Assembly: GCA_016699085.1 (NCBI GenBank) | Contig: CP064958.1 | Coordinates: forward strand, 131,785-195,784 | Reading direction: 5' to 3' | DNA length: 64,000 bases | Source: Candidatus Nomurabacteria bacterium | GTDB taxonomy: Bacteria > Patescibacteriota > Minisyncoccia > Phycocordibacterales > UBA9973 | Notes under the pieces: generated by a model | What the model was told of the DNA's origin: nothing | Databases searched by the model: none | Seen by the model: the letters and a program-made list of their open reading frames with translations, nothing else | Made by a program: the position numbers and the translations under genes | Part shown: piece by piece, positions 7,403 to 42,409 of the stretch | Position numbering within the stretch: position 1 is the first letter of the stretch | Layout: every line of letters begins with the position of its first letter

Positions 7403-7411
7403 GTCCAATAT

Positions 7412-11031: not shown

Positions 11032-11042
11032 AATAATTTTTA

Positions 11043-16732: not shown

Positions 16733-16771
16733 AGAACGAATACTACTATTTTTTTAATTTTTGTAAACTAA

Positions 16772-18899: not shown

Positions 18900-18926
18900 A
18901 TCGTAACTATAGCATACAGGAATTTA

Positions 18927-18955
18927 TTGACAATATATAATATTTATGCTAATAT
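18927..18955 (+). promoter_or_regulatory. Candidate sigma70 promoter (TTGACA-17-TAATAT) in a divergent intergenic region
   Basis: ttgacaatatataatatttatgctaatat lies ~25 nt upstream of the ATG at 18980. Confidence 0.4.
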
Positions 18956-18979
18956 ACTTTCAAACAAAATTGAAAAAAA

Positions 18980-19963: not shown

Positions 19964-19982
19964 AAATTAAATTTAAAACATC

Positions 19983-20012
19983 AAAAACCAACGTCTAACG
20001 TTGGTTTTTTAT
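19983..20012. terminator. Bidirectional terminator between convergent genes
   Basis: aaaaaccaacgtctaacgttggtttttt. Confidence 0.55.
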
Positions 20013-20761: not shown

Positions 20762-20768
20762 ATAAGTA

Positions 20769-25129: not shown

Positions 25130-25130
25130 A

Positions 25131-25931: not shown

Positions 25932-25936
25932 TTTTA

Positions 25937-26488: not shown

Positions 26489-27258
26489 AGTATATGTCGA
26501 ATACGGTAGTAAAGTGTAAGACCATGTGATAGATACGATTTAAAAATCGGTAGTGTTACCCCCTGATCGATACCAATACGAGGTAATGCAAAAATGTTCT
26601 CTTTTTGACTTACACCTTTTGGCCTGACCGCACACGCAGCTTCAAAACCTAAACTATTGAGTGAATCTTGTATTTGTTTTGTCCTTCGACCATATGGGTA
26701 AGAAAAATAACGACACATGTTTCCTGTTAGTTTCTGTATTTCGTATTTCGATTTTTCAATATCACCTATCGCCTCTTCATATGTCATCTGATCGAGATGT
26801 GGATGTGTATGCGTATGAGATCCGATTGTAATATGTGGTTGTTGAGACAAAAAAATAATATCATCTACCGATGGTCGCTCTGTCCCAGCAAAATATTCAG
26901 TAGAAAAAAGATCTGTCGTGAGGAAAAGCGCAGCTGAAAAAGAATACTTGCTGAGAATTGGCAGAGCATTTTCTCTTGTATCACGGTATATATCATCAAA
27001 TGTAATGGCAACTGTTTGATGAGAAAAATTTTTTTCACCTTTACTATAGGAAACTATATCCTCAAGCGGTACAACAGAAAAATGTTTAGCTAAATACGCC
27101 ATTTGCTGTTCGAATGACTCCTTGCTTATAGCATGTTTCCAGGAGGGATTATCTCCAACAGAATGGTACATCAAAATACCAACAAATGGCCTATGGACAA
27201 ATATTTGAGCTAAAAAACTTAGCACAGATAAAAGTAACGTTTTAGGGGTGTTCTTCAT
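26485..27258 (-). CDS. Polysaccharide deacetylase (NodB-homology domain)
   Basis: VAITFDDIYRD...ALPIL...TLFL plus the His-rich GSHTHTHPHL, characteristic of NodB-domain metal sites. Confidence 0.75.
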   Translation of the reverse strand: MKNTPKTLLLSVLSFLAQIFVHRPFVGILMYHSVGDNPSWKHAISKESFEQQMAYLAKHFSVVPLEDIVSYSKGEKNFSHQTVAITFDDIYRDTRENALPILSKYSFSAALFLTTDLFSTEYFAGTERPSVDDIIFLSQQPHITIGSHTHTHPHLDQMTYEEAIGDIEKSKYEIQKLTGNMCRYFSYPYGRRTKQIQDSLNSLGFEAACAVRPKGVSQKENIFALPRIGIDQGVTLPIFKSYLSHGLTLYYRIRHIL

Positions 27259-27821
27259 ATCAAAATTTTTGCTTCATTGCTGGTTGTAACGATCACGCGA
27301 GTACCCATTTTTGATTTGAGCATAGGCATTGCTGTAGCATAATTCGCTATCATGTTTTTCCACCAAATACCTCGACCTTCTACAGAAAGTGCTCTGCGTG
27401 GCTTTATAAGTCGGGTAGCATCTCTTGCTTTAATAATTGATATCGGTTCATCAATCACAAGCAACGTATCAGGTACCGGGAGTAAAGAAACATATAATTT
27501 CAAAATCTTGTGGGGTACCTGATGTTCAAATAAGGATAAAATATTTTGATATAAACCTTCATCAATTATACCCCCTCTCCTTTTTTTTGCCTTCATATAT
27601 CGACCACCTCGATCAAAAATACACACACGGATTTTATGAAAAACATACCGCAAGCTTGTAATTGCAATCAGCACTGTTATGACCGCAACTAGTGGATAGC
27701 GCACTATAAACATGAGTCCATATTTCCATTTTTCCTTATATGAAAGCCGGATTAGGTTTGGATTATCTTTAACTAACGCAGACTTGCCTGCTCCAGGTAA
27801 GCCATAAAGTTCGTACATCAT
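27255..27821 (-). CDS. Small P-loop NTPase (Walker A GLPGAGKS, Walker B-like LLVIDEP) with a central hydrophobic segment; possible nucleotide/sugar kinase
   Basis: Motifs only. No confident family. Confidence 0.3.
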   Translation of the reverse strand: MMYELYGLPGAGKSALVKDNPNLIRLSYKEKWKYGLMFIVRYPLVAVITVLIAITSLRYVFHKIRVCIFDRGGRYMKAKKRRGGIIDEGLYQNILSLFEHQVPHKILKLYVSLLPVPDTLLVIDEPISIIKARDATRLIKPRRALSVEGRGIWWKNMIANYATAMPMLKSKMGTRVIVTTSNEAKILI

Positions 27822-28606
27822 AATTTCTCAAACAAAATCGCATACGATTCTGCAAATAGGGCTGTTATTGGTCCTAAAGCTTTGCAGCCTAACATTTTCG
27901 CAACCAATCGATTTATCTGTGCGCTCTTTAATAAAGGAAACGCAAAGGTAACTCCGGTAATTTTAATAACCTTACAACCATTTGCCTCAAAATGGTCTCG
28001 GAGTTTCCATGGGGAAATTTGGGTGCTATGAAAATCTGCAGTCGTACGTCCTAAAAGTCGTGCACGGCGATAATGTGGCATTTTAGTAACAACATAGCCA
28101 ATACCACCAGGGGCGAGCAAAGCCGCACATTTTTTTGCCACTCTATCTTTGTCAGCAATATATTCAATAATTCTTGATGCAAAGAGGAGATCAAATTTTT
28201 TTGAAGGAGTAAATATAAGCAAATCTTCTTCTATGAATGTAAATGAGGCATTATCTGAAAATCGTTTTCTGGATAGCGCTAGCATTTCTCGCGAAATATC
28301 AAGCAAGGTAAACTCAGCCCGTGGAAATTCCTTTAAAAGTTCGGCAGTCCACGTGCCTGCACCAGGTCCAATCTCAAGAATTTGATTTGCATCTGGCATT
28401 ATAGGAAAAAGTACACGATGTAATGCTCGCTTAGTCATTGCATATTGAGCCTTACGGAGCGGACTAGAAAACCAGCGTTCGTGCTCATATGAATCTTGAT
28501 ACACAGTACCTATGACGGTATTGTAAAAATTTTTTACTTCATTATTTCTCATTTTTTTTGCAACAAAATAGATAATGACTCGGATCATCAGCGTCGACAG
28601 TAACAC
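27818..28606 (-). CDS. Class I SAM-dependent methyltransferase
   Basis: ILEIGPGAGTWTAELL...FTLLDISREM. Confidence 0.65.
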   Translation of the reverse strand: MLLSTLMIRVIIYFVAKKMRNNEVKNFYNTVIGTVYQDSYEHERWFSSPLRKAQYAMTKRALHRVLFPIMPDANQILEIGPGAGTWTAELLKEFPRAEFTLLDISREMLALSRKRFSDNASFTFIEEDLLIFTPSKKFDLLFASRIIEYIADKDRVAKKCAALLAPGGIGYVVTKMPHYRRARLLGRTTADFHSTQISPWKLRDHFEANGCKVIKITGVTFAFPLLKSAQINRLVAKMLGCKALGPITALFAESYAILFEKL

Positions 28607-29180
28607 TTTCTATTGTTAAACCAGCATATGTAATATCTTTTTTAATCCGCGCAATACTATATCCTTTTTTACCAAGTTCCCAATAATGTTCACCATTAAA
28701 TGTATGCTTCTTCCAAAAGAAAGGTAACTTCCAGAAAAGCGTTAGGTGTGGCAAAAGCGGCAACTTACATTTTAATAAAAAAACTCCTCCTGCATGTGGT
28801 AACCCTATAACAACATACGAACGTGTCACTCGCGCAAGCTCAGCAATTGCTACCAGGGATTCATCGTATGGCAAATGCTCTAATACTTCCGAACAAAGAA
28901 CTGTATCGAATGATGCATCTGGTGCAGGAATTTTTTGCACAGATCCTACATAGGTCGGCGAAAGCTCTGGATCAATATCAAGTGTTGAAACATCATAGCC
29001 ATATATGCGTAAAAGTTTTGTCACTGTACCATCACCCGGACCTACTTCGAGCACGTTCGTAGGCTCTGTTGCCATAACAGCGTGCAGCTGTCGCCAGTAA
29101 TTAATCCACCTATCTTTTCTTACGTAGTTCTTGAAATCGTAGTGTTCTTTATCTACTTGGATTCGCGCATCAAATGTCAT
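28542..29180 (-). CDS. Class I SAM-dependent methyltransferase (Methyltransf_11-like)
   Basis: VLEVGPGDGTVTKLL...VSTLDIDPEL. The ORF-track start overlaps the downstream gene by ~65 nt, so the true start may be internal. Confidence 0.65.
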   Translation of the reverse strand: MTFDARIQVDKEHYDFKNYVRKDRWINYWRQLHAVMATEPTNVLEVGPGDGTVTKLLRIYGYDVSTLDIDPELSPTYVGSVQKIPAPDASFDTVLCSEVLEHLPYDESLVAIAELARVTRSYVVIGLPHAGGVFLLKCKLPLLPHLTLFWKLPFFWKKHTFNGEHYWELGKKGYSIARIKKDITYAGLTIESVTVDADDPSHYLFCCKKNEK

Positions 29181-30232
29181 GTAAGTAAGTGGGTTATGGT
29201 AGCGATCAGGCTTTGAAGTCCGTGATTTTTTTTAATAAAAGGCGGCAGTATAGCAAGGGCATGTGTACTATATGTCTTATATTCTGTTATTATATTTTCG
29301 ATTTTTAGAGCCAGTGAGTCAGTATCTCTAAATATCCCTTCTGTATAGCCAGACTGGACAAGAACCTCTACCCCGGCAGGATTAGTAACAAGAACAGGAA
29401 CCCCCATAGCAAGCGCTTCAAGCAAGGCTTTATCGAGACTTCCTGTATCACTCATAGTAACAAAAAGATGTGAATTCTGTAAGTAACGAGGAATAGCATC
29501 GTGTGCCTTACCGCCAGCAAATGTAATAGCGTTCGGTGGATTAACAAAGCTTGCTTTCTCTTCTAGAAACTTTTTACATTTTATATCATTTGCCGTAATA
29601 GCTTCTCCAACAAACACCAGGCCAACCCGAATCCCCTTTTTTGTCACTTCAATTATTGCATCAATTATTCTATCGTTACGTTTAATAGATGACAAACGTC
29701 CAACAACTAAGATTTTAAATGATTCAGTAGATTGATAGGATAAAGGTTCAAGTGCTGGAGAAAAAAGTGTCATGTCGATACCGTGACCAACAATTTTCAC
29801 TTTCTTACTTTTTATACGAAAGCTTTCGGTTGATGCTGTAAAAATAATGTTAACGAGGAAGGTAGCTAGTCGGAGTTTCAGATCTACACTTTTGTGTGTA
29901 TACCAAAGAGAAATTTTTTTTCCAAGGAGAAACCAAACCTTCCATCCCAAAATCACATACACTGGATTCATGTGGACAAAAACAGTATCATACTCTTTTC
30001 TGTATTGCCAAATATATTTATAAAAACGTCGCAGGTAGTGGAATTTAGAAATAGAATCTTCTTTGCCGAGAGACAAAACTTGTACATTCTTTGGCAAATC
30101 GAAAGTGCCTTTTTTGAGACAAATCACCGTCACTTTTTCATATGTTTTTGCAAATTCTAAAATCCATGCATGGAAAAAACCAAGCGACGGATCTGTACTA
30201 TCTACTACCTGAGTAATAATAAGAAGTTTCAT
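29177..30232 (-). CDS. Glycosyltransferase family 1
   Basis: C-terminal ...SLDKALLEALAMGVPVLVTNPAGVEVLV. Confidence 0.7.
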   Translation of the reverse strand: MKLLIITQVVDSTDPSLGFFHAWILEFAKTYEKVTVICLKKGTFDLPKNVQVLSLGKEDSISKFHYLRRFYKYIWQYRKEYDTVFVHMNPVYVILGWKVWFLLGKKISLWYTHKSVDLKLRLATFLVNIIFTASTESFRIKSKKVKIVGHGIDMTLFSPALEPLSYQSTESFKILVVGRLSSIKRNDRIIDAIIEVTKKGIRVGLVFVGEAITANDIKCKKFLEEKASFVNPPNAITFAGGKAHDAIPRYLQNSHLFVTMSDTGSLDKALLEALAMGVPVLVTNPAGVEVLVQSGYTEGIFRDTDSLALKIENIITEYKTYSTHALAILPPFIKKNHGLQSLIATITHLLT

Positions 30233-31326
30233 AGAAGTTTTTTAAATGCGTCTTGGTATGCTTGCATATACGCTTCAGTATCAAGAACATTAAGTGAAGC
30301 CCGGACATCTGAACGATTAAACGCAGAATCATACAAAACATTGGCAAGTCTTTCTGTTATCATATCTTGATCTCCAACATTTACCTTATACCCATTAACA
30401 CCGTCTTCAATAATTTCTTCAACACAACCGACCGTCGTTGCAACAACTGGCGTGCCAGAAGCAATTGATTCAACTACAGTCATTCCCCAGCTCTCATAGT
30501 TTGATGTAAGTAAAAAGACATCCGCAAATTGATACCATGGCCTTAGATCATTCACCCAAGGTAGAAGAATAACTTTATTTTCGATGTGCAAGCTGGTGAC
30601 CAAATTCTTTATTACACTCTCTTGACTTCCTCTACCAATAAGAACAAGAAATACACTAGAATGTAGCTTTACAAATGCTTCTAGTCCAAGTGGAATATTT
30701 TTCTGCTTCTCGAATCGTGATGCCATAAGGACCACCTTTGCTTTTTCAGGAATTTCTTTTGGTCGTGGTAATTGCATGACTTCTGAAAAATAACCAATAT
30801 CTGTTGCAATAGGGAGAGTCGTAATCTTCTCTGGACTGATAGCTAGTTGTGTCACGAGATACTTTGTAATTTGTTCAGAAACAGATCGGATTCCTGTTGC
30901 TTTTGGGAGGATATAGTTGGCAATTCTTGCTTGCCAAACATGTCGAATTGATTCTTGTTTAAATTCTGGAGTAAAAAAATTAATATGGATTTGAAGCTGT
31001 AGTGGCACAGCAAAACGTTTGGCGACAAAATATGCCAAAAAACCAATTTCAAAAGGATCTTGCGAAGTAATCACAGTATCTCTTTTTGGTTTATCTTGTA
31101 TAATATTCTTAATTTGTCTATAAGCTTCAAGTAGTGCTCTCACTTTATTTTTTGCAAAAATCGGGTATATACTAACATTTGCTATCTGAGATTTTTCACG
31201 CTTCGTCTTTGTGAAAGCAATAATATGGTACTCATCAAAAAGTTTCCCATAGGAAAGTATCCGCTCGCGCACTTTGGAGCTTTCATCAAATAGTCCTTCT
31301 TCAACGCCTAGAGAAATTATTTTCAT
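30229..31326 (-). CDS. Glycosyltransferase family 1
   Basis: ...SNYESWGMTVVESIASGTPVVATTVGCVEEIIEDGVNGY. Confidence 0.8.
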   Translation of the reverse strand: MKIISLGVEEGLFDESSKVRERILSYGKLFDEYHIIAFTKTKREKSQIANVSIYPIFAKNKVRALLEAYRQIKNIIQDKPKRDTVITSQDPFEIGFLAYFVAKRFAVPLQLQIHINFFTPEFKQESIRHVWQARIANYILPKATGIRSVSEQITKYLVTQLAISPEKITTLPIATDIGYFSEVMQLPRPKEIPEKAKVVLMASRFEKQKNIPLGLEAFVKLHSSVFLVLIGRGSQESVIKNLVTSLHIENKVILLPWVNDLRPWYQFADVFLLTSNYESWGMTVVESIASGTPVVATTVGCVEEIIEDGVNGYKVNVGDQDMITERLANVLYDSAFNRSDVRASLNVLDTEAYMQAYQDAFKKLL

Positions 31327-32351
31327 ACTATTGATAAATATTTTTTTACTATGTCTACTTCTGTATGTACATACAAAATACTCTGAGCTTTTTGTTTATA
31401 CGTATCATAATTCTCTATTAAATTTTGCAGACCTTCTTCTATTGAAGCTTGATTTGTTGGATCAATAAAAACACCACAGGCATGGAAGCGCTCATGAAGA
31501 CCTGTTTCTTTGGTTAAAATAAATGGCTTACCATACTCTAAACCTTCAAGAACGAGGTTGGGACTTACCTCTGAAAATGACACGACAGCAGTAGCATATA
31601 TATTTTTCATAAGGTGAGGTAATTTTTGGTGAGTAAAAGGTGTAGTATAGAGTTCTACATGTATACCTTTTTTTTGTACATTTGCCACAACGGTTTCTAA
31701 CATTTTATTATTTTTAAGTGGTATATTTCTGTTTGATGCTAAGAGCATAAAGTTTCCTTCGGGATTTTGAGCAGATTTCGGCTCAAAAACATTTTCAATG
31801 ACAACTATTTTCTCTTGTGACACACTGTATGTTTTTTCAATAATAGCACCATACCATGAGGTATTAACGACGACATACTTTGCATTTCGAAGTACGAAGG
31901 CTGTCATTTTTATAAGCATACTCTCTTTGAAAGAAAGAGTTTGTATGTTTGTATAGAAAGTTTTAAGCGATAGTGGATTCCCAGTGCGATTTACATATGC
32001 TTCCCATGTTGAGTCACCACCTACACGAACGACAAATGGTATCCCAGTAATAGAAGATACCAGAGCAGCCGGAAACCCAACACTTGTAGCATCAAAACAT
32101 ACTATGCTTGTAGCACCATGACACTTCATAAGTAGCCTAAAGAAAAAGATAACGTAGCGCAATAGTGTCGGCAATCTTTTCTCAATTTTCCACTGCACAA
32201 GCCTCACAGGAATCCCTTGAGCTTCTAAACCTTTGTAAAGCATGGAAGCATATTTTGCTGGACCACCAATATTAGGAGGGAAAAGCCCTGTGGCAATTAC
32301 AATAGAGGCTTTTTTCTGCATAGGATTAGAGTAGCCTTTTTTATTGAACAT
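31323..32351 (-). CDS. Glycosyltransferase (GT-B fold, GT1/GT4-like)
   Basis: N-terminal IVIATGLFPPNIGGPAKYASML with a C-terminal GT-B-like half. Confidence 0.55.
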   Translation of the reverse strand: MFNKKGYSNPMQKKASIVIATGLFPPNIGGPAKYASMLYKGLEAQGIPVRLVQWKIEKRLPTLLRYVIFFFRLLMKCHGATSIVCFDATSVGFPAALVSSITGIPFVVRVGGDSTWEAYVNRTGNPLSLKTFYTNIQTLSFKESMLIKMTAFVLRNAKYVVVNTSWYGAIIEKTYSVSQEKIVVIENVFEPKSAQNPEGNFMLLASNRNIPLKNNKMLETVVANVQKKGIHVELYTTPFTHQKLPHLMKNIYATAVVSFSEVSPNLVLEGLEYGKPFILTKETGLHERFHACGVFIDPTNQASIEEGLQNLIENYDTYKQKAQSILYVHTEVDIVKKYLSIV

Positions 32352-32367
32352 CGCAAATACATACTTG

Positions 32368-33528
32368 TTACAGTAGGTTGCTCATTTTTTGTGTAACTGC
32401 ATCCCAATCAAATTTCTTTATAACGAGTTCTTTGGCATTTATAATAATTTTTTGCTTAAGTTTTATATCTTCATATAAACGAACTGCTTTAGCGATTGAT
32501 GCAGGATTTTCTGAATCGCAAAAAATGCCAGTTTCCCTATCAGTGAGGAAGTCTGGTATACCACCAACAGGTGTGCCAACAACAGGAATACCTGCTGCCA
32601 TGGCTTCCAGGAACGAATTTCCAAGCCCCTCAGATAATGAGGGTCTCACAAAAATATCTGAGGCTTTCAAATACAGCGGCAATAGTTCATGTGAAATAAA
32701 GCCAACAAAAATAACTCTATCTTCCAACTTTAGGTTTGTAACTTTAGACTTTAGACTTTTCTCAAGCTTCCCTTGACCAGCAACAACTAATTTATATTGT
32801 TTTGGCAAGAATACCAATGCTTCAACAATATCTTTTACGCCATTTTTCTTTACTAATCGCGAAGCTGTCATAATAAATATATCTTCTGGCTGCTTACCTA
32901 ATTTTTTTTGTAGCCCAACTATTTCCTCTTCTGGAATATCTTTACTAAAATGCTCTATCGTAACTCCATTTGGAATTACTACAGGTTCATTTGAGTAACC
33001 CATATCTTTAGCGAATGTTGCCAGATAGTTTGAAATTACTTGTATCGTATCAGCCCTGCGGAAAATTTCGACAAATAATGGATAGACTAAAAATGCTCGT
33101 CGTTTTATATATGCAATTGGATCACCTTCTTGTAGTGTCAAAAGAAATAGAATTTTTGGATAACGCCATTTAAAAAAGAGTGCTGCAAAACCGGCATAGC
33201 TTGCCATGATTGACCACGTGTGTGTATAGCCGTATTCTCTATGAAGTTTTGTTGCTTTTACTAATGCTAAAAATGGATAGATATGTTTTATGATTGTTCG
33301 CAATATTTTTTGCAAAATCCCACTGCCACCACAATACGGACCAACGCCATAGATAGTCACATTACCTACCTGCATATTTCGATCATGTTCCGTTCGAAGC
33401 GTTACCATATCAAAAGAGGCATCAGGTATACGATCAGTAATTTCTTTGACCGCAACCTCTGCTCCGCCGATAAATCGAGGGAAGTATACCAATGAAAAAA
33501 TAAGTATCCGTTTAGACTTTTCTTGCAT
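32368..33528 (-). CDS. Glycosyltransferase family 1
   Basis: EGLGNSFLEAMAAGIPVVGTPVGGIPDFLTDRETG. Confidence 0.85.
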   Translation of the reverse strand: MQEKSKRILIFSLVYFPRFIGGAEVAVKEITDRIPDASFDMVTLRTEHDRNMQVGNVTIYGVGPYCGGSGILQKILRTIIKHIYPFLALVKATKLHREYGYTHTWSIMASYAGFAALFFKWRYPKILFLLTLQEGDPIAYIKRRAFLVYPLFVEIFRRADTIQVISNYLATFAKDMGYSNEPVVIPNGVTIEHFSKDIPEEEIVGLQKKLGKQPEDIFIMTASRLVKKNGVKDIVEALVFLPKQYKLVVAGQGKLEKSLKSKVTNLKLEDRVIFVGFISHELLPLYLKASDIFVRPSLSEGLGNSFLEAMAAGIPVVGTPVGGIPDFLTDRETGIFCDSENPASIAKAVRLYEDIKLKQKIIINAKELVIKKFDWDAVTQKMSNLL

Positions 33529-34630
33529 ATGATTTTAAAATAGATACATAGAGTGCAAATACTTCTCTACTCATGATTTCTCCAGTATATTGCATACCAC
33601 GCTCTTTAGCCTTTATTCCTTTTTGATGCCGAAAATCATCATTTGAAATAAGCTCAATAAGCGCAAGTGCTATATCTTCAGATGTCACCTGCGCAGGCAA
33701 AAGCGCACCTACAGTTGCATCAATTGCCTCACTCATACCACCGACATTATTTGCAATAACAGGTATACTAAGTTGCAAAGCTTCTAAAATTACCATTGGG
33801 AAACCCTCCCAATCAGATACAAGGACTAAAATATCACCTTCTGATAACTCAGCCAATGCTTTAGCTCTATCTAGAGTCTCAGTAATATATATACTTTTTT
33901 CTACATGCAGTGCTAGTATTTGTGTATTGAGCTTTGATTTTTTTGGTCCATTACCGAGCAATCGCACTTCTACCTTTGCCTGCAAAGCTTGAGGCAAACG
34001 GGCGAAAGCAGCAATCAGGAGATCCTGACGTTTTGGTTCTGCAAACCTTCCTAAAAACACAATTCGCAATTTCTTGTTTTCATGCTTTCGGGTAATATTG
34101 CTTGGGATGGTTACGCCATTATGAATAACATTAATCTTTTCCTTTTTGGCAATGGCGTACGACAATGCAATCTGCTGATCAAACACTGATACGCATATGA
34201 TTTTTTTGCAAAAGTATGCCGCAATCTTTTCTGCAACAATGGCAATAATTTTTTTAGGCAATGATACACCATTGATGAATCCCCAACCATGGGCTGTATA
34301 TACCACAGGATATCTATTCAATAGCCCTATGCGCCCAATAAATCCTGAAAATGAGCTATGTAGTGAGACGATATCGGGCTTAAATTCTAGTACAGCGTTT
34401 CGATATACAAAAAGTGCTCGGAGAATAAGTATCGGATTAAGTGTCTTTTGAATAAATCGATTTGGGATAAATGAAAATCCAAATGCTTTTGTTTCATCTG
34501 CAAGCCATCCACTAGTAGATGCCATTACAATAACTTCATCCCCATTTTTTTTATGTGCTGAAAGAAGTTCCCAAATGACGCTCTGGGCACCTCCGCATTC
34601 CGATTTTGTAATAAAATAAAATATTCGCAT
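33512..34630 (-). CDS. Glycosyltransferase family 1
   Basis: EGFPMVILEALQLSIPVIANNVGGMSEAID. Confidence 0.85.
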   Translation of the reverse strand: MRIFYFITKSECGGAQSVIWELLSAHKKNGDEVIVMASTSGWLADETKAFGFSFIPNRFIQKTLNPILILRALFVYRNAVLEFKPDIVSLHSSFSGFIGRIGLLNRYPVVYTAHGWGFINGVSLPKKIIAIVAEKIAAYFCKKIICVSVFDQQIALSYAIAKKEKINVIHNGVTIPSNITRKHENKKLRIVFLGRFAEPKRQDLLIAAFARLPQALQAKVEVRLLGNGPKKSKLNTQILALHVEKSIYITETLDRAKALAELSEGDILVLVSDWEGFPMVILEALQLSIPVIANNVGGMSEAIDATVGALLPAQVTSEDIALALIELISNDDFRHQKGIKAKERGMQYTGEIMSREVFALYVSILKSYARKV

Positions 34631-34647: not shown

Positions 34648-36753
34648 CTAAAACGGAATAGTGTACACGAAACCAGGAATTTCATTTTGCGCCTTCACTA
34701 ACGCCGTGTTGAAAAGATCGTCTTGGTTGCTGATTAAATATAAATTAAGCAATAACGAGCGAGTTTCCGACACAGCAGGCTGGAGAATAATAGCTTTGTT
34801 GACCAGATCAATTGCTTCATTAAATTTACTTGCTCCAACATATGTTTCAGCAAGCGTTAGATAGCCAAATACATTTGATGGTGAAAGTGCGAGTAATTTT
34901 TTTCCATACACCTCTGCAAGTGCATTTGCTTCAGCATCTTTGGCCTTGCTAATTTCATAAATCAAATTATTAATACGTGCAATTACAAATGGATTTTGAT
35001 AGTTATCTGGATCTTTTGCTTCTATGGATTGCAGAACTTTGACTTGAGCCTTGAGGTCAGTGATAGCGCGTTTTTCTCCATCTTCTGCAGACATAATAAT
35101 TGAGAAGTTATTGGCATATGACTGGTATAGTGCATCAGCAAATTGAGCCGTTGTTCGCGAAACTCCGACTGGTGACATGTGAGTAACATGCTCTAACCTG
35201 TTTACCCTCGTCGTAGGATCCGAGGTAACTAATTTTGACAATGCATGGAGTTTTGCAATCGGTAAAATTACTATCCATATAAGCACGCCAACATATAGCA
35301 ATTTTATTCCTACACTAAGTGCGATTTGTTTCGGTGGCAATATGACACCTTTCTCTTCTAAAGTCTGTTCAGACGTATCTTGTGTATTTTTATATATTCC
35401 TACGTATATACATGCGAGCACAACAATCCATATAACTGCAGTGGCCGGTGTATCAAAAAGAAAAAGATTTTGAAAAAAGTAGGCAATAAGTGCAGCAATA
35501 CCAAAGAGTACAAATAATGGTGTCTGTCTCATTTTCCAAGAATATCGCACCAGTACAACAAGCGGAAAGAAGAAAAGACAAAGATATAATACCAGTGCAG
35601 GCATACCGGCAACTGCTCCCCATTCCAACACTTGATTGTGTGGTTTATCTACCCATGGCTCAATAAGTGGGCTTGAGAAAAGCGCTGTATCAAAATATTT
35701 TTCAAATGCAATAAAATAGTTTTCTGGACCAAAACCGAACAAGGGTCTATCATGCATTGCTTGCAATGAAACTTTTGCATACGCCAAACGATTACCACCT
35801 GTCGTCTCAATAAAATATTTATTTAATGCTGTATTTGTTTGAAATGTTTTTACAATGCCAATTGTAGAGACAACAATCGCCATAAGCATAACCACCACAA
35901 TGCTATACCGCACCCATTTCTTTCCTTTTACAAATGTCACCCACATTCCTGCTGCAATCAGTCCGACGAGCATACCGAGCACTGCAGCACGAGCCTCACC
36001 CAAAAAAAGAGCTGGTTGATGGAGTATCTCTCCGATTGAGACTCTACCTAACCAAATGTTAAAGTTAAATAATGTTGGACTTACGGCAATCACAATACTT
36101 GTGATTGCATAGAAAATTCGCTTTGCTTTTGATGAAGTTGTAAACAGTAGATATATGTTAGCCAAAAGTGCAATGATTAAATATCCACCTAAAAATGATG
36201 AGTTGCCGAGGGTTGCACCTGAGGTGTCGGCAGCAATTTCGAGTGATTTAATACCCAAACCAGATGTACCTACATAGGTTTGTAGTGCCATTAAAAGTCC
36301 CGTACTACCTACAAGGACTAGCAATCTACGGAAATTTTCGATTGATGGAAAAACTGATCGAATAAGGATGAAGAAAAGATACAAGTGGATATAGAAAATA
36401 ACACCAAGTCCACGCATATAGTATGACCAAAATGAGGTAACAGGACTGGTACCGAAAATTGCCGAAAGAATTATCCACCCCAAAAAACCAATAAAGATCC
36501 AATCAATAATTCCAATTTTGTAGCGATAGCGTTCATCCTTGATAATAACACGTAGGTATATCCACAACAGAAATGCAGTAAGTGTGAGCCCTTCAAAGAT
36601 ATATACTTTAATCGCACCAATGCCGACATATGGACCTGGAGTCGTTAAGACAAAAAGTGGTACAAGGAAAATGGTTATTTCAATAATTCGCTTTAAAACT
36701 TTTCCTAGTAGATTAATTTTTTTTGCAGAGATTTTCATGGGTCGTAATGACAA
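34648..36753 (-). CDS. Wzy_C-domain (O-antigen ligase / O-oligosaccharyltransferase-like) polytopic membrane protein with C-terminal TPR repeats
   Basis: Multi-TM region with a ...VDKPHNQVLEWGAVAGMPALVLY... block as in the Wzy_C/WaaL/PglL family. The C-terminal ~200 aa are soluble and helical, TPR-like. Confidence 0.6.
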   Translation of the reverse strand: MSLRPMKISAKKINLLGKVLKRIIEITIFLVPLFVLTTPGPYVGIGAIKVYIFEGLTLTAFLLWIYLRVIIKDERYRYKIGIIDWIFIGFLGWIILSAIFGTSPVTSFWSYYMRGLGVIFYIHLYLFFILIRSVFPSIENFRRLLVLVGSTGLLMALQTYVGTSGLGIKSLEIAADTSGATLGNSSFLGGYLIIALLANIYLLFTTSSKAKRIFYAITSIVIAVSPTLFNFNIWLGRVSIGEILHQPALFLGEARAAVLGMLVGLIAAGMWVTFVKGKKWVRYSIVVVMLMAIVVSTIGIVKTFQTNTALNKYFIETTGGNRLAYAKVSLQAMHDRPLFGFGPENYFIAFEKYFDTALFSSPLIEPWVDKPHNQVLEWGAVAGMPALVLYLCLFFFPLVVLVRYSWKMRQTPLFVLFGIAALIAYFFQNLFLFDTPATAVIWIVVLACIYVGIYKNTQDTSEQTLEEKGVILPPKQIALSVGIKLLYVGVLIWIVILPIAKLHALSKLVTSDPTTRVNRLEHVTHMSPVGVSRTTAQFADALYQSYANNFSIIMSAEDGEKRAITDLKAQVKVLQSIEAKDPDNYQNPFVIARINNLIYEISKAKDAEANALAEVYGKKLLALSPSNVFGYLTLAETYVGASKFNEAIDLVNKAIILQPAVSETRSLLLNLYLISNQDDLFNTALVKAQNEIPGFVYTIPF

Positions 36754-36759
36754 ATAACT

Positions 36760-38835
36760 TTACTTACTGACACTATTGTCATTAAATAGTAGCCCCGTAT
36801 CAGCCAATGCTTGAGCTTGGGCTTCTTTTAATAACGTTTCATTCTTTGTAAGTACTGCTAAATTAATAATAATCTGGTGTGATTCTGGAATTAATCTATC
36901 AATTGCCAATCCCTTTTGAAAAGATACCAATGCATTTTCATAATCACCTTCGTAGATATATCTTTGCCCTAGCAACCAATAACCTTGCGGCATTGTTGGA
37001 GATATGGCAATAGTTTTATCAGCAGCATTTTGCATTTCAGTAAGCGCATCCGAATCTAATTTATTTAAAATTGCAATTTTTAAACTTGCAATACGCCCAA
37101 GCGCAAGTGTCGCCTGCGTGTTTATCGGATGTATAAGGAAACTATCATTAAGCACTTTTGCCATTGCATCAAGATCAGTAATAATAATATCTTTCTGCGG
37201 CTCGGCTAATACTACAATCTCATCTATGTGCGCCTGATATAGCTGGCTATACGTATCTACTCGTTCTGCTATAAATATGCCACTACCAAATGGAGATATG
37301 GATTCAACTCGAGCATAGGACAGCTGTCTATCTTCGATTGGCATTTGTGATTCAACAAATGCATGCTTGAGCTTGCTCATTTCAGGAATCATAATAACGA
37401 GCGTGACTACAACAAGCACAACGCCGCATACAGCACGACTTATAAAATTAATATTTGTAACAGGCTTTGTTTCGATTCCTAGATTTACACTTCTTAAACT
37501 ACCTTCAGAAGAAATGACCCAGGCCATAACTGCAAATAGTAACAAGTAGCTCGTTGGTGTATCAAATACAAATACATTACTTATAAGTGCAGTAAAAAGA
37601 AAACCATTGATGCTTGCAAAAAACCAACGATGCTTAGTCAAGCGGTAAACTCTAAATGATCCCCACGCAATACAGCCAAGCATAAACATATAAGCAATAC
37701 CCCCAATTATACCTGTCGTCGAGAGCCATTCCATATAAGCGTTGTGGGGTTTATCACTCCACTGCTCTTTATTATATGCTGCAAGCATCATGTCTGGATT
37801 GAAATATTTCTCATAGGTATATCGATATGTTTCAGGCCCGCTACCTAGGACAGGATGGTCCTGGATACCTTGAAGCGCAATATCCCAATAGATAAAACGA
37901 CTACCAGTAGCTTCTTGGATGAATGCTTGATGTATATATGTCTGTGGCAGCACAAGGAGTATAAGAGACACCAGAAATCCAACTATGGTACAAAAAAGAA
38001 TAATACGTCCTGACCATTTTTTTATCGTACGCTGTGATGTTGACCAGATAATGCCCCACACTATGAGCAAGCCTCCAATAAGCGCAATAACATCGGCACG
38101 AGCATTTCCAAGCACGTCAACTACTCGGGTAATGGAGCCATGAAATATCGCAAAATTAACAAGCGTTGGATTAACAAGTATGGTAGCCCCAACAATACCG
38201 AACACGATTCGACTCGTCCGGGTCGTTGCCGTGGCAAAAAGATATATAGCAATGAATAATGCTTCAGCAAGATACGTACCAGTAAATGAAGAGTTACCAA
38301 TAAGTCCGCCGCCTGAACTATTTTCCAAAACTTGACTTGTAATGATTCCAAATCCGCTCGGACCAAGAATAACCGAGAGACTCACAATGACTGCAGCCCC
38401 AGTAATTGGATAAAGCAAAAAACGTCTGATCTTTTTTGGATCTTTGAGTGCTACCCCAATTGCAATAGCCCCAAGTGCTACAAGCAGTATAAAAAAAGTA
38501 CCAGTTCCCCGTTCCGGATGTCCAAGCCATGACAGTACCCTATCTACACTACCAAGCATTGCCACTACCAAAACAATAAGGAATGCAACAATACCCCACG
38601 TCATTCTCGTATACAATAGATTCTTGAGCGTTGCCCATGGCACAGCAAACAATACAAGCGCTATCGTACAAGCACTACCGATGGCTATAATAAATGTCTT
38701 CGAATTTATATAATTGAACCATATCCCAGAAAATACAACAGTAGATCCAAAAAATAATGTACAGGCAATAATATACGGCAAAACAGGCAAAAGCATACTT
38801 GTGCATTTTTGCTGAAAAATTTCTATAGTTTTCAT
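36760..38835 (-). CDS. Second Wzy_C-domain (O-antigen ligase / O-oligosaccharyltransferase-like) membrane protein with C-terminal TPR repeats; paralog of the upstream gene
   Basis: ...SDKPHNAYMEWLSTTGIIGGIAYMFMLG... block. Same architecture as 34648-36753. Confidence 0.6.
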   Translation of the reverse strand: MKTIEIFQQKCTSMLLPVLPYIIACTLFFGSTVVFSGIWFNYINSKTFIIAIGSACTIALVLFAVPWATLKNLLYTRMTWGIVAFLIVLVVAMLGSVDRVLSWLGHPERGTGTFFILLVALGAIAIGVALKDPKKIRRFLLYPITGAAVIVSLSVILGPSGFGIITSQVLENSSGGGLIGNSSFTGTYLAEALFIAIYLFATATTRTSRIVFGIVGATILVNPTLVNFAIFHGSITRVVDVLGNARADVIALIGGLLIVWGIIWSTSQRTIKKWSGRIILFCTIVGFLVSLILLVLPQTYIHQAFIQEATGSRFIYWDIALQGIQDHPVLGSGPETYRYTYEKYFNPDMMLAAYNKEQWSDKPHNAYMEWLSTTGIIGGIAYMFMLGCIAWGSFRVYRLTKHRWFFASINGFLFTALISNVFVFDTPTSYLLLFAVMAWVISSEGSLRSVNLGIETKPVTNINFISRAVCGVVLVVVTLVIMIPEMSKLKHAFVESQMPIEDRQLSYARVESISPFGSGIFIAERVDTYSQLYQAHIDEIVVLAEPQKDIIITDLDAMAKVLNDSFLIHPINTQATLALGRIASLKIAILNKLDSDALTEMQNAADKTIAISPTMPQGYWLLGQRYIYEGDYENALVSFQKGLAIDRLIPESHQIIINLAVLTKNETLLKEAQAQALADTGLLFNDNSVSK

Positions 38836-38875: not shown

Positions 38876-38906
38876 ACAAAAACCACCCCCGAGGGGGTGG
38901 TTTTTG
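38876..38906. terminator. Strong rho-independent terminator after the surface-protein gene
   Basis: aaaaaccacccccgagggggtggtttttg. Confidence 0.65.
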
Positions 38907-38943
38907 TTATCTTTAGCAATTGCTTGCTTTGGATGCCTCTCGC

Positions 38944-40938
38944 TTAGTTAGCGTTTTGGTAGTTCGTAGTGAACGCCGCATTCGTTGGACCAAGGTTGAA
39001 GTTGTATAGACCAGTGAATGTACCAGCCGCAGCTATATCAGTTGAATCCCAGTTGATGCTTGAAAGGTAAGCACGGTAGAGACCAGCTGTATTAGTAACA
39101 CCATCAGTAACACTTACAGTAAGAGTGAAGTTTTCACTTGTACCGCTGTTAATAACGAAGTTACCATTTGATGAGAGTGAAGGACTGTATGGTCCTGTAT
39201 CCACTACAACACCAGAAACTTGAGCGTTTGATACTGTAACTCCAGACTTATCAACACCAAAGATTACTTTCTCGCCTGATGTACCAGCAAGTGTTGGCAT
39301 GTAGATTGTACTGCCGAATGCTGTTACCTTGAAAGCGATAGTAAATGTTTGGATGTCATCATTTGCAGATGTACCTGGTGTAAGACTTGCTGTTGCAGAG
39401 ATTGGATCAACCATGATGCCCTTATCGTAGAATGCTACAGATTCACCTGTTGCAGAACCGATAAGTTTAGTAGCACCAATAGTATTACCAGTTGCATCAG
39501 TAATGTCATATCCAGCAACCCCACCAGCAATCGTTGCACTCATGGTTGAACCTGCAACAAATGCAGTTGTACCAGGAAGTGGAAGGATGTCAGCAGAGAC
39601 GATGAAGTCAGCTGATGAACCATTCGTGATTGTCTGATTAAGATTCTTGAATGTGTACGCTGTTGATGTACCAGTTGCTTGAACAGTTGTTGAGTCAAGA
39701 ACTACTCCACTTGCGTTTTGAAGGTAGAGAGTACTTGCCATCAAATTCAATGCTACACCTGATGTGATCGTAACTGGGATCTTATCAATTTGTAGATTTG
39801 AACCAACTGCCTTGAAGTTAGCCTTCAAGAGCTGTACTTTGTTTGTGTTTGAAGTTGCATCAACGTCTTTAACGTGTGCCTTCATGTCATCTGTTGCGCG
39901 TGAAATAGCAACTTCAACACTGTTTGCTGATGCTGCACTTGCAAAGCTAAATGAACATGCACTTGTTGAAGAACAGTTCGTAGGATTGTAGGTTAGTGAA
40001 GCGCCTGTTCCATCCGTAAAGCGGATGTTAGAAACGATCACTCTCCATGTGTTTCCACCAGAAACTGTGTTTGCACTATCGATTACTGGAAGTGCTGAAA
40101 CGCCGACGTAGAAGTTTGACTTCTGGCCTGCAAGAATCTTAGCACCACTAAGAGTTATTGTCTTAGAGTAAACGTAGTTTGTGTACGCAGAGTTAGTGTC
40201 TTGACTGAATTCAGACGCAAGCGCTGAACCAACCTTTGTGCCTTCTTCCCAGAATGAAACATTTGAGAAGTATTTATCCATCTTTGTGTCTGTACCAGTA
40301 CCACTAGTCATCACGAATTGAAGACTAAGTGAGGTAAGAGTCACATCAGAGCCACCAGAAGCAGCCTTAAGCTGGATACCAGCAACTTGATGATCAGCAT
40401 CACCTACGCCGACAAGTTCACTAGCGTAACCGCCAATCAACGTATCGCTTTCGATGCTACCAACACCAGTTGGATTGCTTACAACACTACCGCTACATGA
40501 TGCACCGGTTGTAACGCTGTAAAGCTGTCCAGGCATTGTACAGCCAGGAACACTTGATACACCGCCTGTACATGGAGCTCCAGTAGTTGAACTATAGAGA
40601 GCACCAGCCATACAGCCAGGAACACTTGATGGTGTACCACCCAAAGTATTGATTGATGAAGCAGTCATAGGACCAACAACACCATCAGCACTTAGAGCGT
40701 GAGCACCTTGATACCAAACAACAGCTGCTTTGGTCATAGGACCAAAAGCACCATCAACAGTAAGTGCTGGAGCATAACCAGCAACATTGAGTGCTGCTTG
40801 AAGATCCATCACTTCTTGTCCACTTGAACCTACAACGAGGTTCGGAGGAACACTAACTTCTGCGCGAGCTACGTTTACAACTATGAAAGCTGCAAGAACG
40901 AAAGCTGTTGCAAAAGCGAATTTTGTAAATTTTTGCAT
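38944..40938 (-). CDS. Secreted Ser/Thr/Gly-rich surface (S-layer-like) protein with an N-terminal signal peptide, a peptidoglycan-binding domain and two Cys-loop repeats
   Basis: Signal peptide MQKFTKFAFATAFVLAAFIVVNVARA. PG_binding_1-like SSGQEVMDLQAALNVAGYAPALTVDGAFGPMTKAAVVWYQGAHALSADGVVGPMT. Tandem VPGCxxxGxLYSxTTGAxCxG repeats. The remainder is ~45% S/T/G/A. Confidence 0.6.
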   Translation of the reverse strand: MQKFTKFAFATAFVLAAFIVVNVARAEVSVPPNLVVGSSGQEVMDLQAALNVAGYAPALTVDGAFGPMTKAAVVWYQGAHALSADGVVGPMTASSINTLGGTPSSVPGCMAGALYSSTTGAPCTGGVSSVPGCTMPGQLYSVTTGASCSGSVVSNPTGVGSIESDTLIGGYASELVGVGDADHQVAGIQLKAASGGSDVTLTSLSLQFVMTSGTGTDTKMDKYFSNVSFWEEGTKVGSALASEFSQDTNSAYTNYVYSKTITLSGAKILAGQKSNFYVGVSALPVIDSANTVSGGNTWRVIVSNIRFTDGTGASLTYNPTNCSSTSACSFSFASAASANSVEVAISRATDDMKAHVKDVDATSNTNKVQLLKANFKAVGSNLQIDKIPVTITSGVALNLMASTLYLQNASGVVLDSTTVQATGTSTAYTFKNLNQTITNGSSADFIVSADILPLPGTTAFVAGSTMSATIAGGVAGYDITDATGNTIGATKLIGSATGESVAFYDKGIMVDPISATASLTPGTSANDDIQTFTIAFKVTAFGSTIYMPTLAGTSGEKVIFGVDKSGVTVSNAQVSGVVVDTGPYSPSLSSNGNFVINSGTSENFTLTVSVTDGVTNTAGLYRAYLSSINWDSTDIAAAGTFTGLYNFNLGPTNAAFTTNYQNAN
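40490..40640. repeat. Tandem ~72-bp direct repeat inside the surface-protein gene (encodes the duplicated Cys-loop motif)
   Basis: cagccaggaacacttga occurs at 40541 and 40613 with similar flanks. Confidence 0.5.
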
Positions 40939-41509: not shown

Positions 41510-42409
41510 TTACTTCAAAGAGTATTTTGACCAACGTTTTTCACCTATTTTCTTAAGGACACCTTCTTTAACAAGAGACATCAATTCACGTTGCAATGTC
41601 TTTTCGCTACAATTTTTTATAACTTGTGCAATGTCCTTTATCATAATTTCTGGCTTGTCTTTTAGAAGAGCAAAAATATTGTTACGCCTATCATTTTTCA
41701 AAGCTAATTCGATTTTTTTTGATTGGCCTTTTAATTGCTCTTTTTCAATAAGACCTTGTGATTTTTGCTGAGGGTTTATTTGATGTCCTTTATTAAAGGA
41801 CAGATACTTTTTCAATAACTCTTCATGTCCTTTATCATTTTGTAGACTTACTGTAGGTGAAGAAGCATTAGATTTTTGGTCTTGCAAGCTATCGGAATGC
41901 ATAGCATCCCATTGCAACATATCAGCCGGAACTGTAAATTTTTCAAGCGACTGGGAACGAAACAGTGTTGTTGTGTATTTTCCTTCCCTATTTTCTCTAG
42001 TTAAAGCATCAAAAGAAGTTGATAATAACGTAAGCTCTTTCATTAAAATACTGCCATTCATTTCCCCAATACTACCAACGGTATGGCCTAATTCTATTAA
42101 CCCAAGTAGGTGGCAAAGATCATTTTCAATTTCTTCAAGGACTATGCTTGTTTTTACGCCCGTTAACATGTCAATGCTTGATACTTTTTTTAATAGATTT
42201 AGACACTCTGTCCTTAATGAATGCTTTAAGTAATCAGTGTCATTTATGCACTCAGTAACCATATATAGTGCCGTAGATATTTTTAATGTCCTTTTAAACA
42301 AAGAATTACTCGTAGATTTATTGTGAAATAAACCAATTTTCATATTAGAATTTTCTTGGTGTCCATTAAAGACTTTACCATCAGTTGTACTCTCTTTTTT
42401 GTGTTCCAT
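41510..42409 (-). CDS. Hypothetical protein with a C-terminal winged-helix DNA-binding-like domain
   Basis: C-terminal ...IFALLKDKPEIMIKDIAQVIKNCSEKTLQRELMSLVKEGVLKKIGEKRWSKY resembles DeoR/MarR-like wHTH. The N-terminal 230 aa are unassigned. Confidence 0.3.
   Translation of the reverse strand: MEHKKESTTDGKVFNGHQENSNMKIGLFHNKSTSNSLFKRTLKISTALYMVTECINDTDYLKHSLRTECLNLLKKVSSIDMLTGVKTSIVLEEIENDLCHLLGLIELGHTVGSIGEMNGSILMKELTLLSTSFDALTRENREGKYTTTLFRSQSLEKFTVPADMLQWDAMHSDSLQDQKSNASSPTVSLQNDKGHEELLKKYLSFNKGHQINPQQKSQGLIEKEQLKGQSKKIELALKNDRRNNIFALLKDKPEIMIKDIAQVIKNCSEKTLQRELMSLVKEGVLKKIGEKRWSKYSLK

Follow-up and report, generated by a model that had tools for sequence, protein, structure and literature searches.

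Tandem Wzy_C proteins with TPR-like tails at the head of a Nomurabacteria glycan island: candidate protein O-oligosaccharyltransferases

Several bacterial membrane enzymes with a Wzy_C domain also carry, or work with, a domain on the outer side of the membrane. WsfB and PglL have a C-terminal tetratricopeptide repeat (TPR) motif, while WsaB has a separate TPR partner, WsaA; in Geobacillus the surface-layer (S-layer) gene lies near the slg glycan cluster and is transcribed independently (PMC2943079). Among protein O-oligosaccharyltransferases (O-OTases), PglL and PglS have a C-terminal periplasmic domain that TfpO and TfpM lack (PMC9829042), and the cleft-forming periplasmic domain at the C-terminus of PglS comes after 13 transmembrane (TM) helices (PMC12800693). 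The gene of a PglL-type enzyme often, though not universally, adjoins the gene of its acceptor (PMC3643930). Other Wzy_C enzymes are shorter ligases with lipid acceptors. WaaL proteins have 419 and 401 aa, and TacL of Streptococcus pneumoniae (397 aa) is a lipoteichoic acid ligase that moves a TacF-flipped polymer, linked to undecaprenyl pyrophosphate (Und-PP), to a glycolipid acceptor (PMC5727136). The acceptor, and with it the choice between O-OTase and ligase (PglL versus WaaL), is not readable from sequence (PMC3643930).

Here we describe two tandem genes of this kind from Candidatus Nomurabacteria bacterium. They lie on contig CP064958.1 in a stretch of 64,000 nucleotides (positions 131,785 to 195,784), which was analysed as a whole and is called the window below; A is the downstream open reading frame (ORF, 34648-36753 of the window) and B the upstream one (36760-38835). 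Judged by sequence and fold comparison, their assignment to the WaaL/PglL superfamily (GT-C_B), that is, to transferases that move an Und-PP-linked glycan to a hydroxyl acceptor at the outer face of the membrane, is secure. We propose that the locus is a surface-glycosylation module and that B is a WsfB/PglL-like protein O-OTase serving the wall-anchored protein encoded next to it, a reading that we hold with about even confidence.

Bacteria of the Candidate Phyla Radiation (CPR, Patescibacteria) are very small and mostly uncultured. A life attached to host cells is assumed for many of them, so that attachment, host range, and sensitivity to phages depend on their surface chemistry. A literature search returned almost nothing published on glycoconjugates of CPR or Patescibacteria, and nothing relevant for CPR together with "O-antigen ligase"; a paper on cyanobacterial exopolysaccharide (EPS) did not mention Wzy_C-TPR fusions. 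The arrangement described here is known from Gram-positive S-layer glycosylation, and it has not been studied before in the Nomurabacteria group.

Membrane core, catalytic loop and outer domain

A sequence-only reading of this DNA had described two adjacent proteins of ~700 aa that share one architecture and differ substantially in sequence, and both points hold. The genes lie on the minus strand with a spacing of 6 nt, and the Pfam Wzy_C model (PF04932) scores 62.7 bits in A and 66.2 bits in B, well above its gathering threshold of 31.7. BLASTP aligns A and B over 627 aa at 28% identity (E=6e-57), colinear through the C-terminal domain; because the alignment includes this domain, the two are true diverged paralogs. 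The real start of A is probably the ATG at 36738, which gives 696 aa, because a 90%-identical ortholog in a near-identical strain (locus L001) has 696 aa and begins at that Met. At E<=0.01, Wzy_C is the sole glycan-assembly family matched by A and B in Pfam, and NCBIfam gave nothing relevant. NCBI labels a protein with 100% identity to B as "O-antigen ligase family protein". A tblastn search with B against 72,556 plasmids gave no match.

The only solved structure that matches the membrane part significantly in both sequence and fold is WaaL of Cupriavidus metallidurans (CmWaaL, 7TPG). A profile of B matched it with E=1.4e-14, and a profile restricted to the TM part with E=1.4e-9. Foldseek aligned B to 7tpg_B with E=6.4e-7 and a TM-score (target) of 0.63, and FtsW, a SEDS protein, was a weaker match. 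We also aligned the TM profile of B to single E. coli sequences with hhalign, which was barely informative: WaaL matched with E=0.0043 over the region of R288 and H338, and the K-12 Wzy protein WbbH (388 aa) did not match significantly (E=0.18).

These comparisons bear on a second reading, in which A (or B) polymerises Und-PP-linked repeat units and the other paralog ligates the polymer to a glycolipid or wall glycan, in the manner of TacL or WaaL. The product would be a polymer like lipoteichoic acid or a secondary wall polymer, and the neighbouring peptidoglycan-binding protein would either have no connection with it or bind it. We regard this reading as possible but doubtful. The E. coli WaaL match over the R288/H338 region is in its favour. 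Against it, the Wzy-polymerase-specific hidden Markov models of Pfam and NCBIfam match neither A nor B, and the alignment with E. coli Wzy lacks significance.

An AlphaFold2 model of B, computed with 90 homologs as input, has a predicted local distance difference test score (pLDDT) of 96 and a predicted TM-score (pTM) of 0.94. Hydropathy, DSSP assignment of the model, and a positive-inside count give 13 TM helices rather than the 10-12 counted in the sequence-only reading. Lys and Arg residues are concentrated on alternate loops and helix ends, which fits a topology with the N-terminus inside and both the loop of residues 296-365 and the tail outside. The catalytic loop and the TPR-like tail are predicted to share the extracytoplasmic side, because the Lys/Arg pattern puts helix 13, which carries the tail, outward.

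The active site of this class is recognisable in both proteins. In PglS, arginines aligned with the WaaL site are proposed to hold the pyrophosphate, and H324 is the proposed catalytic base (PMC12800693). In the profile alignment to 7tpg_B, R246, R313, and H364 of B pair with R191, R265, and H313 of CmWaaL, whose counterparts in E. coli WaaL are R215, R288, and H338. Six residues are invariant across the 90 homologs (G180, N181, R313, G331, G333, and H364). The DKPHN motif, which contains the family-invariant His, lies at residues 361-365 in B and 369-373 in A (701-aa numbering), so the loop pointed out in the sequence-only reading is present in both proteins, with no catalytic residue lost from it. 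The Arg/Arg/His set is kept in A, in B, and in nearly all members checked in related loci, the exception being Lys in place of R246 in L004. In A, Ala replaces the near-invariant Trp317; with its residue set intact, A is predicted to be catalytically competent.

The tail of B forms ~10 helices in the AlphaFold2 model (residues 500-680). Its profile matches consensus-TPR (CTPR) designs and the TPR chains of OGT, Foldseek matches it to CTPR designs with a TM-score of ~0.8, and single-sequence PDB searches matched designed TPR proteins only. Single TPR_2 repeats score 19.8-22.1 bits in A and B, below the Pfam gathering threshold of 27. The C-terminal TPR domain named in the sequence-only reading therefore stands on profile and fold matches and not on a Pfam assignment, and we call it TPR-like. 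WaaL, TacL, and E. coli K-12 Wzy have neither TM13 nor an outer domain of 200 aa, and all paralogs described here have both, which speaks against a polymerase and a lipid ligase.

The full catalytic set and TPR-like tail of both A and B are in line with an alternative in which both are dedicated protein O-OTases of different specificities and no polymerisation occurs. One would serve the adjacent wall-anchored protein, and the other would serve other secreted proteins or transfer a second glycan form. Acinetobacter species are reported to have both TfpO and OTases of the PglL/PglS class (PMC9829042), which gives this alternative a precedent. The absence of Trp317 from A speaks against it, as do parts of the context described below, and we consider it unlikely.

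The family to which the pair belongs is large. A HMMER search with the membrane domain of B against 1.84 billion representatives gave 4651 matches at E<=1e-3, of which 1507 reach E<=1e-10. Of the best 150 matches, 132 have at least 600 aa, so the long form, which includes the additional helix and tail, is the norm for the family. Matches from named genomes are mostly from CPR bacteria (Paceibacterota, Uhrbacteria, Woesebacteria, Roizmanbacteria, and Gracilibacteria). The pair thus represents a new, uncharacterised CPR branch of a known enzyme kind, and given 1507 representative clusters at E<=1e-10, one characterised member would annotate thousands of genes.

Genomic context of the pair

Related loci were searched from homologs of B and, independently, from homologs of the neighbouring surface protein that are only 28-37% identical. 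Eleven loci from Paceibacteria were compared: the window, L001, L002, L004, L045, L046, L048, L049, L050, L051, and L052. The recurrent gene order is elongation factor P (EF-P), RecA, FtsK, an unknown protein of ~280 aa, the PG_binding_1 surface protein, one to three tandem family members, and a glycan cluster with Wzx and an initiating phosphoglycosyltransferase (PGT). The co-occurrence survey suggested in the sequence-only reading bears out its association of the genes: a family member directly follows the surface-protein gene in 10 of the 11 loci, with surface proteins down to 28% identity.

The surface protein itself, at 38944-40938, is a real secreted protein with a signal peptide, as had been proposed. 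After the signal peptide come the PG_binding_1 domain, a Ser/Thr/Gly linker that is modelled with low confidence and contains two Cys-loops, and three beta-sandwich domains of Ig-like type, which Foldseek matches to adhesin-stalk-like structures (integrin leg domains, PrgB, Bap, RbmA, and AspA). Its Ser+Thr content of 24% is the highest in the window, and it has ~100 full-length homologs. The Cys-loop spans 16 residues and occurs in 1-3 copies per linker, separated by Ser/Thr-rich spacers and with P-G before the first Cys (P-G-C-x4-G-[FY]-S-x-T-T-G-x-x-C); in the window protein the loops lie within residues 108-148. In the second loop, C133 is kept in 65 of 66 homologs, and T144, G145, and C148 in 60 of 66. 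No Pfam model matches the loop, and a strict regular expression for it finds the surface-protein family only, with no sign of a general proteome-wide tag. A motif of the same type is found in an unrelated secreted protein of L050 (9322-11334).

The number of family copies varies between loci. One copy is found in L002, L004, L049, and L052, and also in L051, where the contig stops right after it; the window, L001, L045, and L046 have two; and L048 has three in tandem (3832-10118). The first and third copies of L048 are 63% identical, which points to a recent duplication, and none of the three is a clear B-clade copy. In a neighbour-joining tree, the paralogs form a B clade, an accessory clade with A, and a second accessory clade. 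Of the eight loci in the tree, seven have a B-clade copy, among them L002 and L004 with their single copies; the clade of A is found in some loci only. For the alternative of two dedicated O-OTases, copy numbers of 1-3 suggest the expansion of one activity, and the similar L048 copies are hard to explain as two polymerases. On the other hand, the accessory paralogs differ from island to island in the manner of glycan-specific genes, the loci with a single copy show that one enzyme is enough, and the pair does not adjoin a further evident acceptor gene, for example one for a pilin.

The rest of the cluster changes almost completely from locus to locus. When all island proteins of the window were searched against the related loci with tblastn, B was 31-39% identical in diverged loci with a B-clade copy, and the PGT was 56-60% identical in L002 and L045. 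The surface protein, the 299-aa gene upstream of it, and the housekeeping genes are also conserved. Glycosyltransferases (GTs), methyltransferases, and Wzx showed no detectable conservation outside the near-identical strain L001, apart from one GT4 that weakly matches in L045; the NeuB domain recurs in L048. The single-copy island of L049 has a Wzx.

The exception is L050, where positions 7001-13424 were compared with 11043-40938 of the window. It retains the surface-protein gene and has neither a family member nor an island; a Thr/Ser-rich secreted protein comes next, and then a RelB/YafQ toxin-antitoxin pair and rplJ-rplL. The window has its rplJ on the other side of the island, after an HlyD-like gene. 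Because L050 has the surface-protein gene near rplJ without enzymes or island, the enzymes belong to an insertable island between these two genes. Like O-antigen and capsule loci, the island behaves as a hypervariable insertion between conserved flanks. A 670-aa gene of L050 was considered as a degenerate family member and rejected; it encodes the Thr/Ser-rich secreted protein, which has a C-terminal PG-binding-like region.

The same data bear on a further explanation of the adjacency, namely inherited synteny, with the enzymes assembling or exporting a free capsule or exopolysaccharide that has no covalent link to the neighbouring protein. EF-P, RecA, FtsK, and the 299-aa gene are syntenic as well, and L050 retains the surface-protein gene without the enzymes, both of which fit this explanation. 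We nevertheless think it very improbable, since WaaL-type chemistry is transfer to an acceptor hydroxyl and so needs some acceptor, the adjacency persists in 10 of the 11 loci despite complete turnover of island content, and the window contains none of the genes for capsule export or its regulation (Wza/Wzc, CpsA-D).

In the window, the island is ~25 kb long and Wzx-dependent, with A and B at its head and a packed string of minus-strand genes from the pair down to 22563 (Table 1). Beyond the Wzx gene follow a PhyH-like gene, a sulfotransferase, a methyltransferase, a Glyphos_transf-like enzyme, a CMP-sugar cytidylyltransferase, a NeuB fusion, and the Bac_transf PGT. The total is seven GTs (five GT4, then a GT2 and a further GT4). 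Among window ORFs of at least 150 aa, no Wzz/PCP, LCP, lpx, or waa domain is found, and there is no Wzy_C protein or other polymerase-like multi-TM protein besides A and B. The NeuB fusion is unusual: NeuB and SAF are joined to a xylose-isomerase-like TIM barrel (AP_endonuc_2) in one protein of 646 aa (14792-16732, minus strand).

This gene content touches the polymerase-and-ligase reading on both sides. The island is Wzx-dependent and has a PGT and no other polymerase candidate, it contains a Glyphos_transf-like enzyme and a cytidylyltransferase, and A resembles wzy in being specific to the island, as B resembles a ligase in being conserved; all these features are compatible with a polymer. 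However, the window has no Wzz/PCP or LCP gene, and the ~9 transferases with capping-type decorations would suit an oligosaccharide of defined structure more than a short repeat unit. The pattern that had been named as contradicting an O-OTase role, clear Wzy orthology with cognate partners, was not observed, since there is no Wzy-specific match and neither Wzz nor a separate WaaL in the window.

More distant family members have other neighbours, which we named from N-terminal sequence only. A distant subfamily with Wzy_C and tail divergently adjoins an mreB-like gene at about position 9000-11000 (L008-L012, L014, L018, L020, L021, L023, L024, L026, L027, L030, L034, and L036), often with a PBP2-like gene of ~600 aa beside it and def/fmt-like genes downstream. 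The genomes are from Microgenomates or of Woesebacteria type, together with several metagenome-assembled genomes labelled Gammaproteobacteria or Pseudomonadales. The position of these members suggests a housekeeping envelope role, and their cell-wall neighbours favour the polymerase-and-ligase reading. Family members L033, L040, and L043 come after parA/parB-like genes. Large Ser/Thr-rich secreted proteins flank some other distant members (L006, L007, L028, and L029), which fits dedicated O-OTases.

Other features of the window are noted here for completeness. The 299-aa gene upstream of the surface-protein gene is found in all 10 related loci whose sequence reaches that far, at 25-36% identity in the nine diverged ones; its NCBIfam helix-turn-helix (HTH) matches (ArsR/Csa3 type) are far below cut-off, and its product may regulate the locus. 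At the far edge of the island, adjoining the PGT gene, lies a gene for an HlyD-type membrane-fusion protein (11877-13493, minus strand), in which 17 of 40 residues from about residue 201 are Ser or Thr. A 641-aa protein (59797-61722, minus strand) with no Pfam match, 21% Ser+Thr, and one N-terminal hydrophobic segment is another possible secreted glycoprotein candidate. The EF-P ORF (46902-47666, plus strand, 254 aa from a TTG) exceeds its orthologs in L001, L050, and L051 (192-201 aa) by ~60 residues, and its listed start is probably too far upstream. The 23S rRNA gene (2975-7001, minus strand) has 4027 nt against a model of 2925 nt and contains a group I intron (3406-3628); the extra length relative to the model indicates further insertions. 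Group I introns in the 23S rRNA gene are a typical feature of CPR bacteria. The 5S rRNA is at 2717-2822.

Table 1 Features of the locus (window positions)
Feature	Position	Strand	Evidence or remark
Initiating PGT (Bac_transf), conserved far island end	13518..14795	+	Pfam E=7.6e-65
NeuB-SAF-TIM fusion, CMP-sugar cytidylyltransferase, Glyphos_transf-like enzyme, methyltransferase, sulfotransferase	14792..21626	-	nonulosonic-acid branch and decorations
ORF without assigned function	18980-19963	+	within the nonulosonic-acid segment
Wzx-type flippase (Polysacc_synt)	22563..23987	-	PF01943 E=4.9e-13; seven hydropathy peaks
Two methyltransferases, 188-aa unknown, polysaccharide deacetylase, third methyltransferase, GT2, GT4 (in this order)	23984..29180	-	domain matches
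Five GT4 genes directly downstream of A	29177..34630	-	Pfam Glycos_transf_1 / Glyco_transf_4
A, accessory paralog with the architecture of B	34648..36753	-	701 aa from TTG
B, Wzy_C + TM13 + TPR-like enzyme, conserved core copy	36760..38835	-	691 aa, ATG start
B, extracytoplasmic all-alpha TPR-like domain, aa 498-691 (predicted)	36763..37344	-	model, profile, Foldseek
B, TM13, aa 461-497, predicted to take the C-terminal domain outside	37345..37455	-	DSSP helix; positive-inside count
B, predicted catalytic extracytoplasmic loop, aa 296-365 (R313, G331-x-G333, DKPHN with H364)	37741..37950	-	alignment, homolog invariance
B, "ARA" motif with R246 (= CmWaaL R191)	38095..38103	-	profile alignment
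Intrinsic-terminator-like hairpin between surface-protein gene and B	38876..38907	-	14-bp stem, 7 GC pairs, T-run; strong
Candidate acceptor, secreted PG_binding_1 protein	38944..40938	-	664 aa; Pfam PG_binding_1 E=3.8e-14; AlphaFold2 pLDDT 82.6
Two Cys-loop repeats in linker, C-x4-G-x-[FY]-S-x-T-T-G-x-x-C	40495..40614	-	speculative glycosylation sequon
Conserved gene upstream of surface-protein gene	41510..42409	-	299 aa; no Pfam family; weak C-terminal HTH signal

Proposed roles of A and B

B is most likely the conserved terminal glycan transferase of the island. We favour a protein acceptor for it because it has TM13 and an outer domain, which WaaL, TacL, and E. coli Wzy lack, while PglL and PglS have a large C-terminal periplasmic domain and WsfB a C-terminal TPR motif, because it persistently adjoins the gene of a wall-anchored, Ser/Thr-rich protein that has its own terminator, and because the transferase and the initiating enzyme are conserved on either side of a glycan that changes freely. 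Ligases and OTases read the lipid carrier and the reducing end, so they tolerate variable glycans; polymerases do not behave in this way.

For A, the evidence is split. It is an island-specific accessory and may be either a second transferase with another donor or acceptor preference or the otherwise missing Wzy repeat-unit polymerase: the intact catalytic set and the shared tail fit the former, and its island-specific occurrence, like that of wzx and wzy, in an island without another polymerase fits the latter. Islands with a single copy of the B type (L002 and L004) argue that polymerisation is optional. The sequence-only reading had assigned the two genes to substrate-specialised O-OTases, one perhaps serving the S-layer-like protein and the other pilins or the Ser/Thr-rich HlyD-like adaptor. 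With 1-3 copies per locus, a core B, an accessory A, and a possible Wzy role for A, this is now one option only, and no pilin gene lies beside the pair.

We infer the donor, the acceptor, and the way in which A and B share the work from domain content, fold, conserved residues, predicted topology, and gene order with its conservation. The Bac_transf PGT would start the glycan on undecaprenyl phosphate, the seven GTs would extend it, and the Glyphos_transf-like enzyme may add a unit of the glycerol-phosphate type. A CMP-activated nonulosonic acid would be added, and methyl-, sulfo-, and deacetylating enzymes would decorate the glycan; Wzx would flip the product to the outer face of the membrane. 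There B may bind the Und-PP-linked glycan through Arg246 and Arg313, use His364 of the DKPHN loop, and pass the glycan on en bloc to an acceptor hydroxyl in a cleft that the catalytic loop and the TPR-like domain form and that holds the acceptor. The likeliest acceptors would be Ser and Thr residues in the disordered linker of the peptidoglycan-anchored Ig-like protein, and perhaps other secreted proteins too.

A more specific version of this pathway involves the Cys-loops. B-type enzymes may be structure-dependent O-OTases whose outer TPR domain reads the disulfide-stapled hairpin of the loop, with the glycan placed on its invariant Thr. The strain-variable glycan would then give the main adhesin or surface protein of Paceibacteria a serotype-like, fast-evolving coat that serves in attachment to hosts or in escape from phages, and accessory paralogs would adjust the length of the chain or the range of acceptors. 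Eukaryotic O-glycosylation of the EGF/TSR type would thus have a counterpart in bacteria. We consider this specific version speculative and quite unlikely.

Several points weigh against a protein acceptor for B. No feature of sequence or fold separates O-OTases from lipid ligases or polymerases in this superfamily, and the PDB holds no O-OTase structure for comparison. The models PglL_A (PF15864) and Wzy_C_2 (PF11846) are unmatched in A and B at E<=10, and Wzy_C_2 is also unmatched when searched against the tails alone. The position of the TPR-like domain over the active site of B is a prediction of the model, taken from its pTM of 0.94. The enzymes appear to travel with the island and not with the surface protein, as L050 indicates, and their adjacency to it sits within a longer conserved block (EF-P, RecA, and FtsK), so part of it may be plain synteny. 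The mreB/PBP2-like or parA/parB-like neighbours of distant members hint at envelope roles beyond protein glycosylation. Finally, the argument that an organism without lipopolysaccharide (LPS) must use such enzymes as O-OTases does not follow, because the monoderm S. pneumoniae uses the Wzy_C protein TacL as a lipoteichoic acid ligase with a glycolipid acceptor (PMC5727136), which is also a precedent for a polymerase and a ligase here. Conserved context and a literature precedent for the architecture thus stand on one side, and the absence of PglL_A and Wzy_C_2 and the example of TacL on the other; the O-OTase reading is plausible and unproven.

The locus offers a concrete, testable three-part model that consists of an anchored Ig-like protein, a conserved transferase, and a hypervariable island bounded by this transferase and a PGT. 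We suggest that the three-part locus and the Thr-bearing Cys-loops are the parts most worth experiment. If B orthologs indeed serve completely different glycans, they would be O-OTases of relaxed specificity with possible use in bioconjugate engineering. If the acceptor is instead a lipid or wall polymer, the family would explain by what means surface polymers are anchored in CPR bacteria in the absence of LCP enzymes.

Comparison with known systems

Wzy polymerases resemble the accessory A in that they occur in variable, Wzx-dependent loci and are glycan-specific, and some Wzy proteins carry a Wzy_C domain. They differ in that Wzy-specific models do not match A or B, no Wzz is encoded nearby, and E. 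coli K-12 WbbH has no TPR-like tail; such a C-terminal domain is not known from other Wzy polymerases either. The eukaryotic TMTC1-4 proteins and TfpW of P. aeruginosa are TPR-bearing GT-C enzymes that act on protein acceptors, and their TPR domain lies on the non-cytoplasmic side. The likeness is an analogy only, as they belong to the PMT/ArnT-like GT-C class and use monosaccharide-phosphate lipids as donors rather than Und-PP-linked oligosaccharides.

WaaL (C. metallidurans 7TPG/7TPJ; E. coli) shares with B the aligned catalytic residues Arg191, Arg265, and His313 and an Und-PP-linked donor. It has ~400-420 aa and 12 TM helices, without TM13 or an outer TPR domain, while A and B have 691-701 aa and both features. 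Its acceptor is lipid A-core, and no waa or lpx genes are found among the window ORFs; CPR bacteria are generally held to lack LPS. TacL is likewise a Wzy_C enzyme of a bacterium without an outer membrane that uses an acceptor outside the cell, but it has no C-terminal domain, its acceptor is a glycolipid, and its gene does not lie beside a surface-protein gene.

PglL (Neisseria) and PglS (Acinetobacter) have, like B, a Wzy_C core with the Arg/Arg/His set, 13 TM helices, and a C-terminal outer domain. Q178, N180, G316, G318, H400, E404, and P406 of NmPglL are conserved in PglL and not in enteric WaaL (PMC3643930). By published positions, R298, G316, G318, and H349 of NmPglL have the same offsets (+18/+20/+51) as R313, G331, G333, and H364 of B, and N180 corresponds to N181 of B as a conserved Asn in the preceding outer loop. 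H400, E404, and P406 would correspond to N420, D425, and P427 of B, a set that is similar and not identical. A and B differ from these enzymes in that PglL_A and Wzy_C_2 do not match them, and their tail is longer, TPR-like, and ~200 aa in length. The neighbour in the window is not a pilin, and the organism is a monoderm-type CPR bacterium.

The S-layer systems, WsfB of Paenibacillus alvei and WsaB with WsaA of Geobacillus stearothermophilus, were compared by description. Their target is an S-layer protein, while the neighbour of B is a PG_binding_1-anchored Ig-like protein that is not a proven S-layer protein; the Geobacillus cluster uses the ABC exporter Wzm/Wzt, while the window encodes Wzx; and WsfB and WsaB are present in single copy, while the loci described here have 1-3 tandem paralogs. 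In both, a Wzy_C core is combined with a TPR domain (C-terminal or as a partner), the gene lies in or next to a glycan cluster with a Bac_transf-type initiator and methyltransferases, and the host has no outer membrane. The gene of the Geobacillus target protein is also close by and has its own transcription, and the surface-protein gene of the window likewise ends in its own strong terminator.

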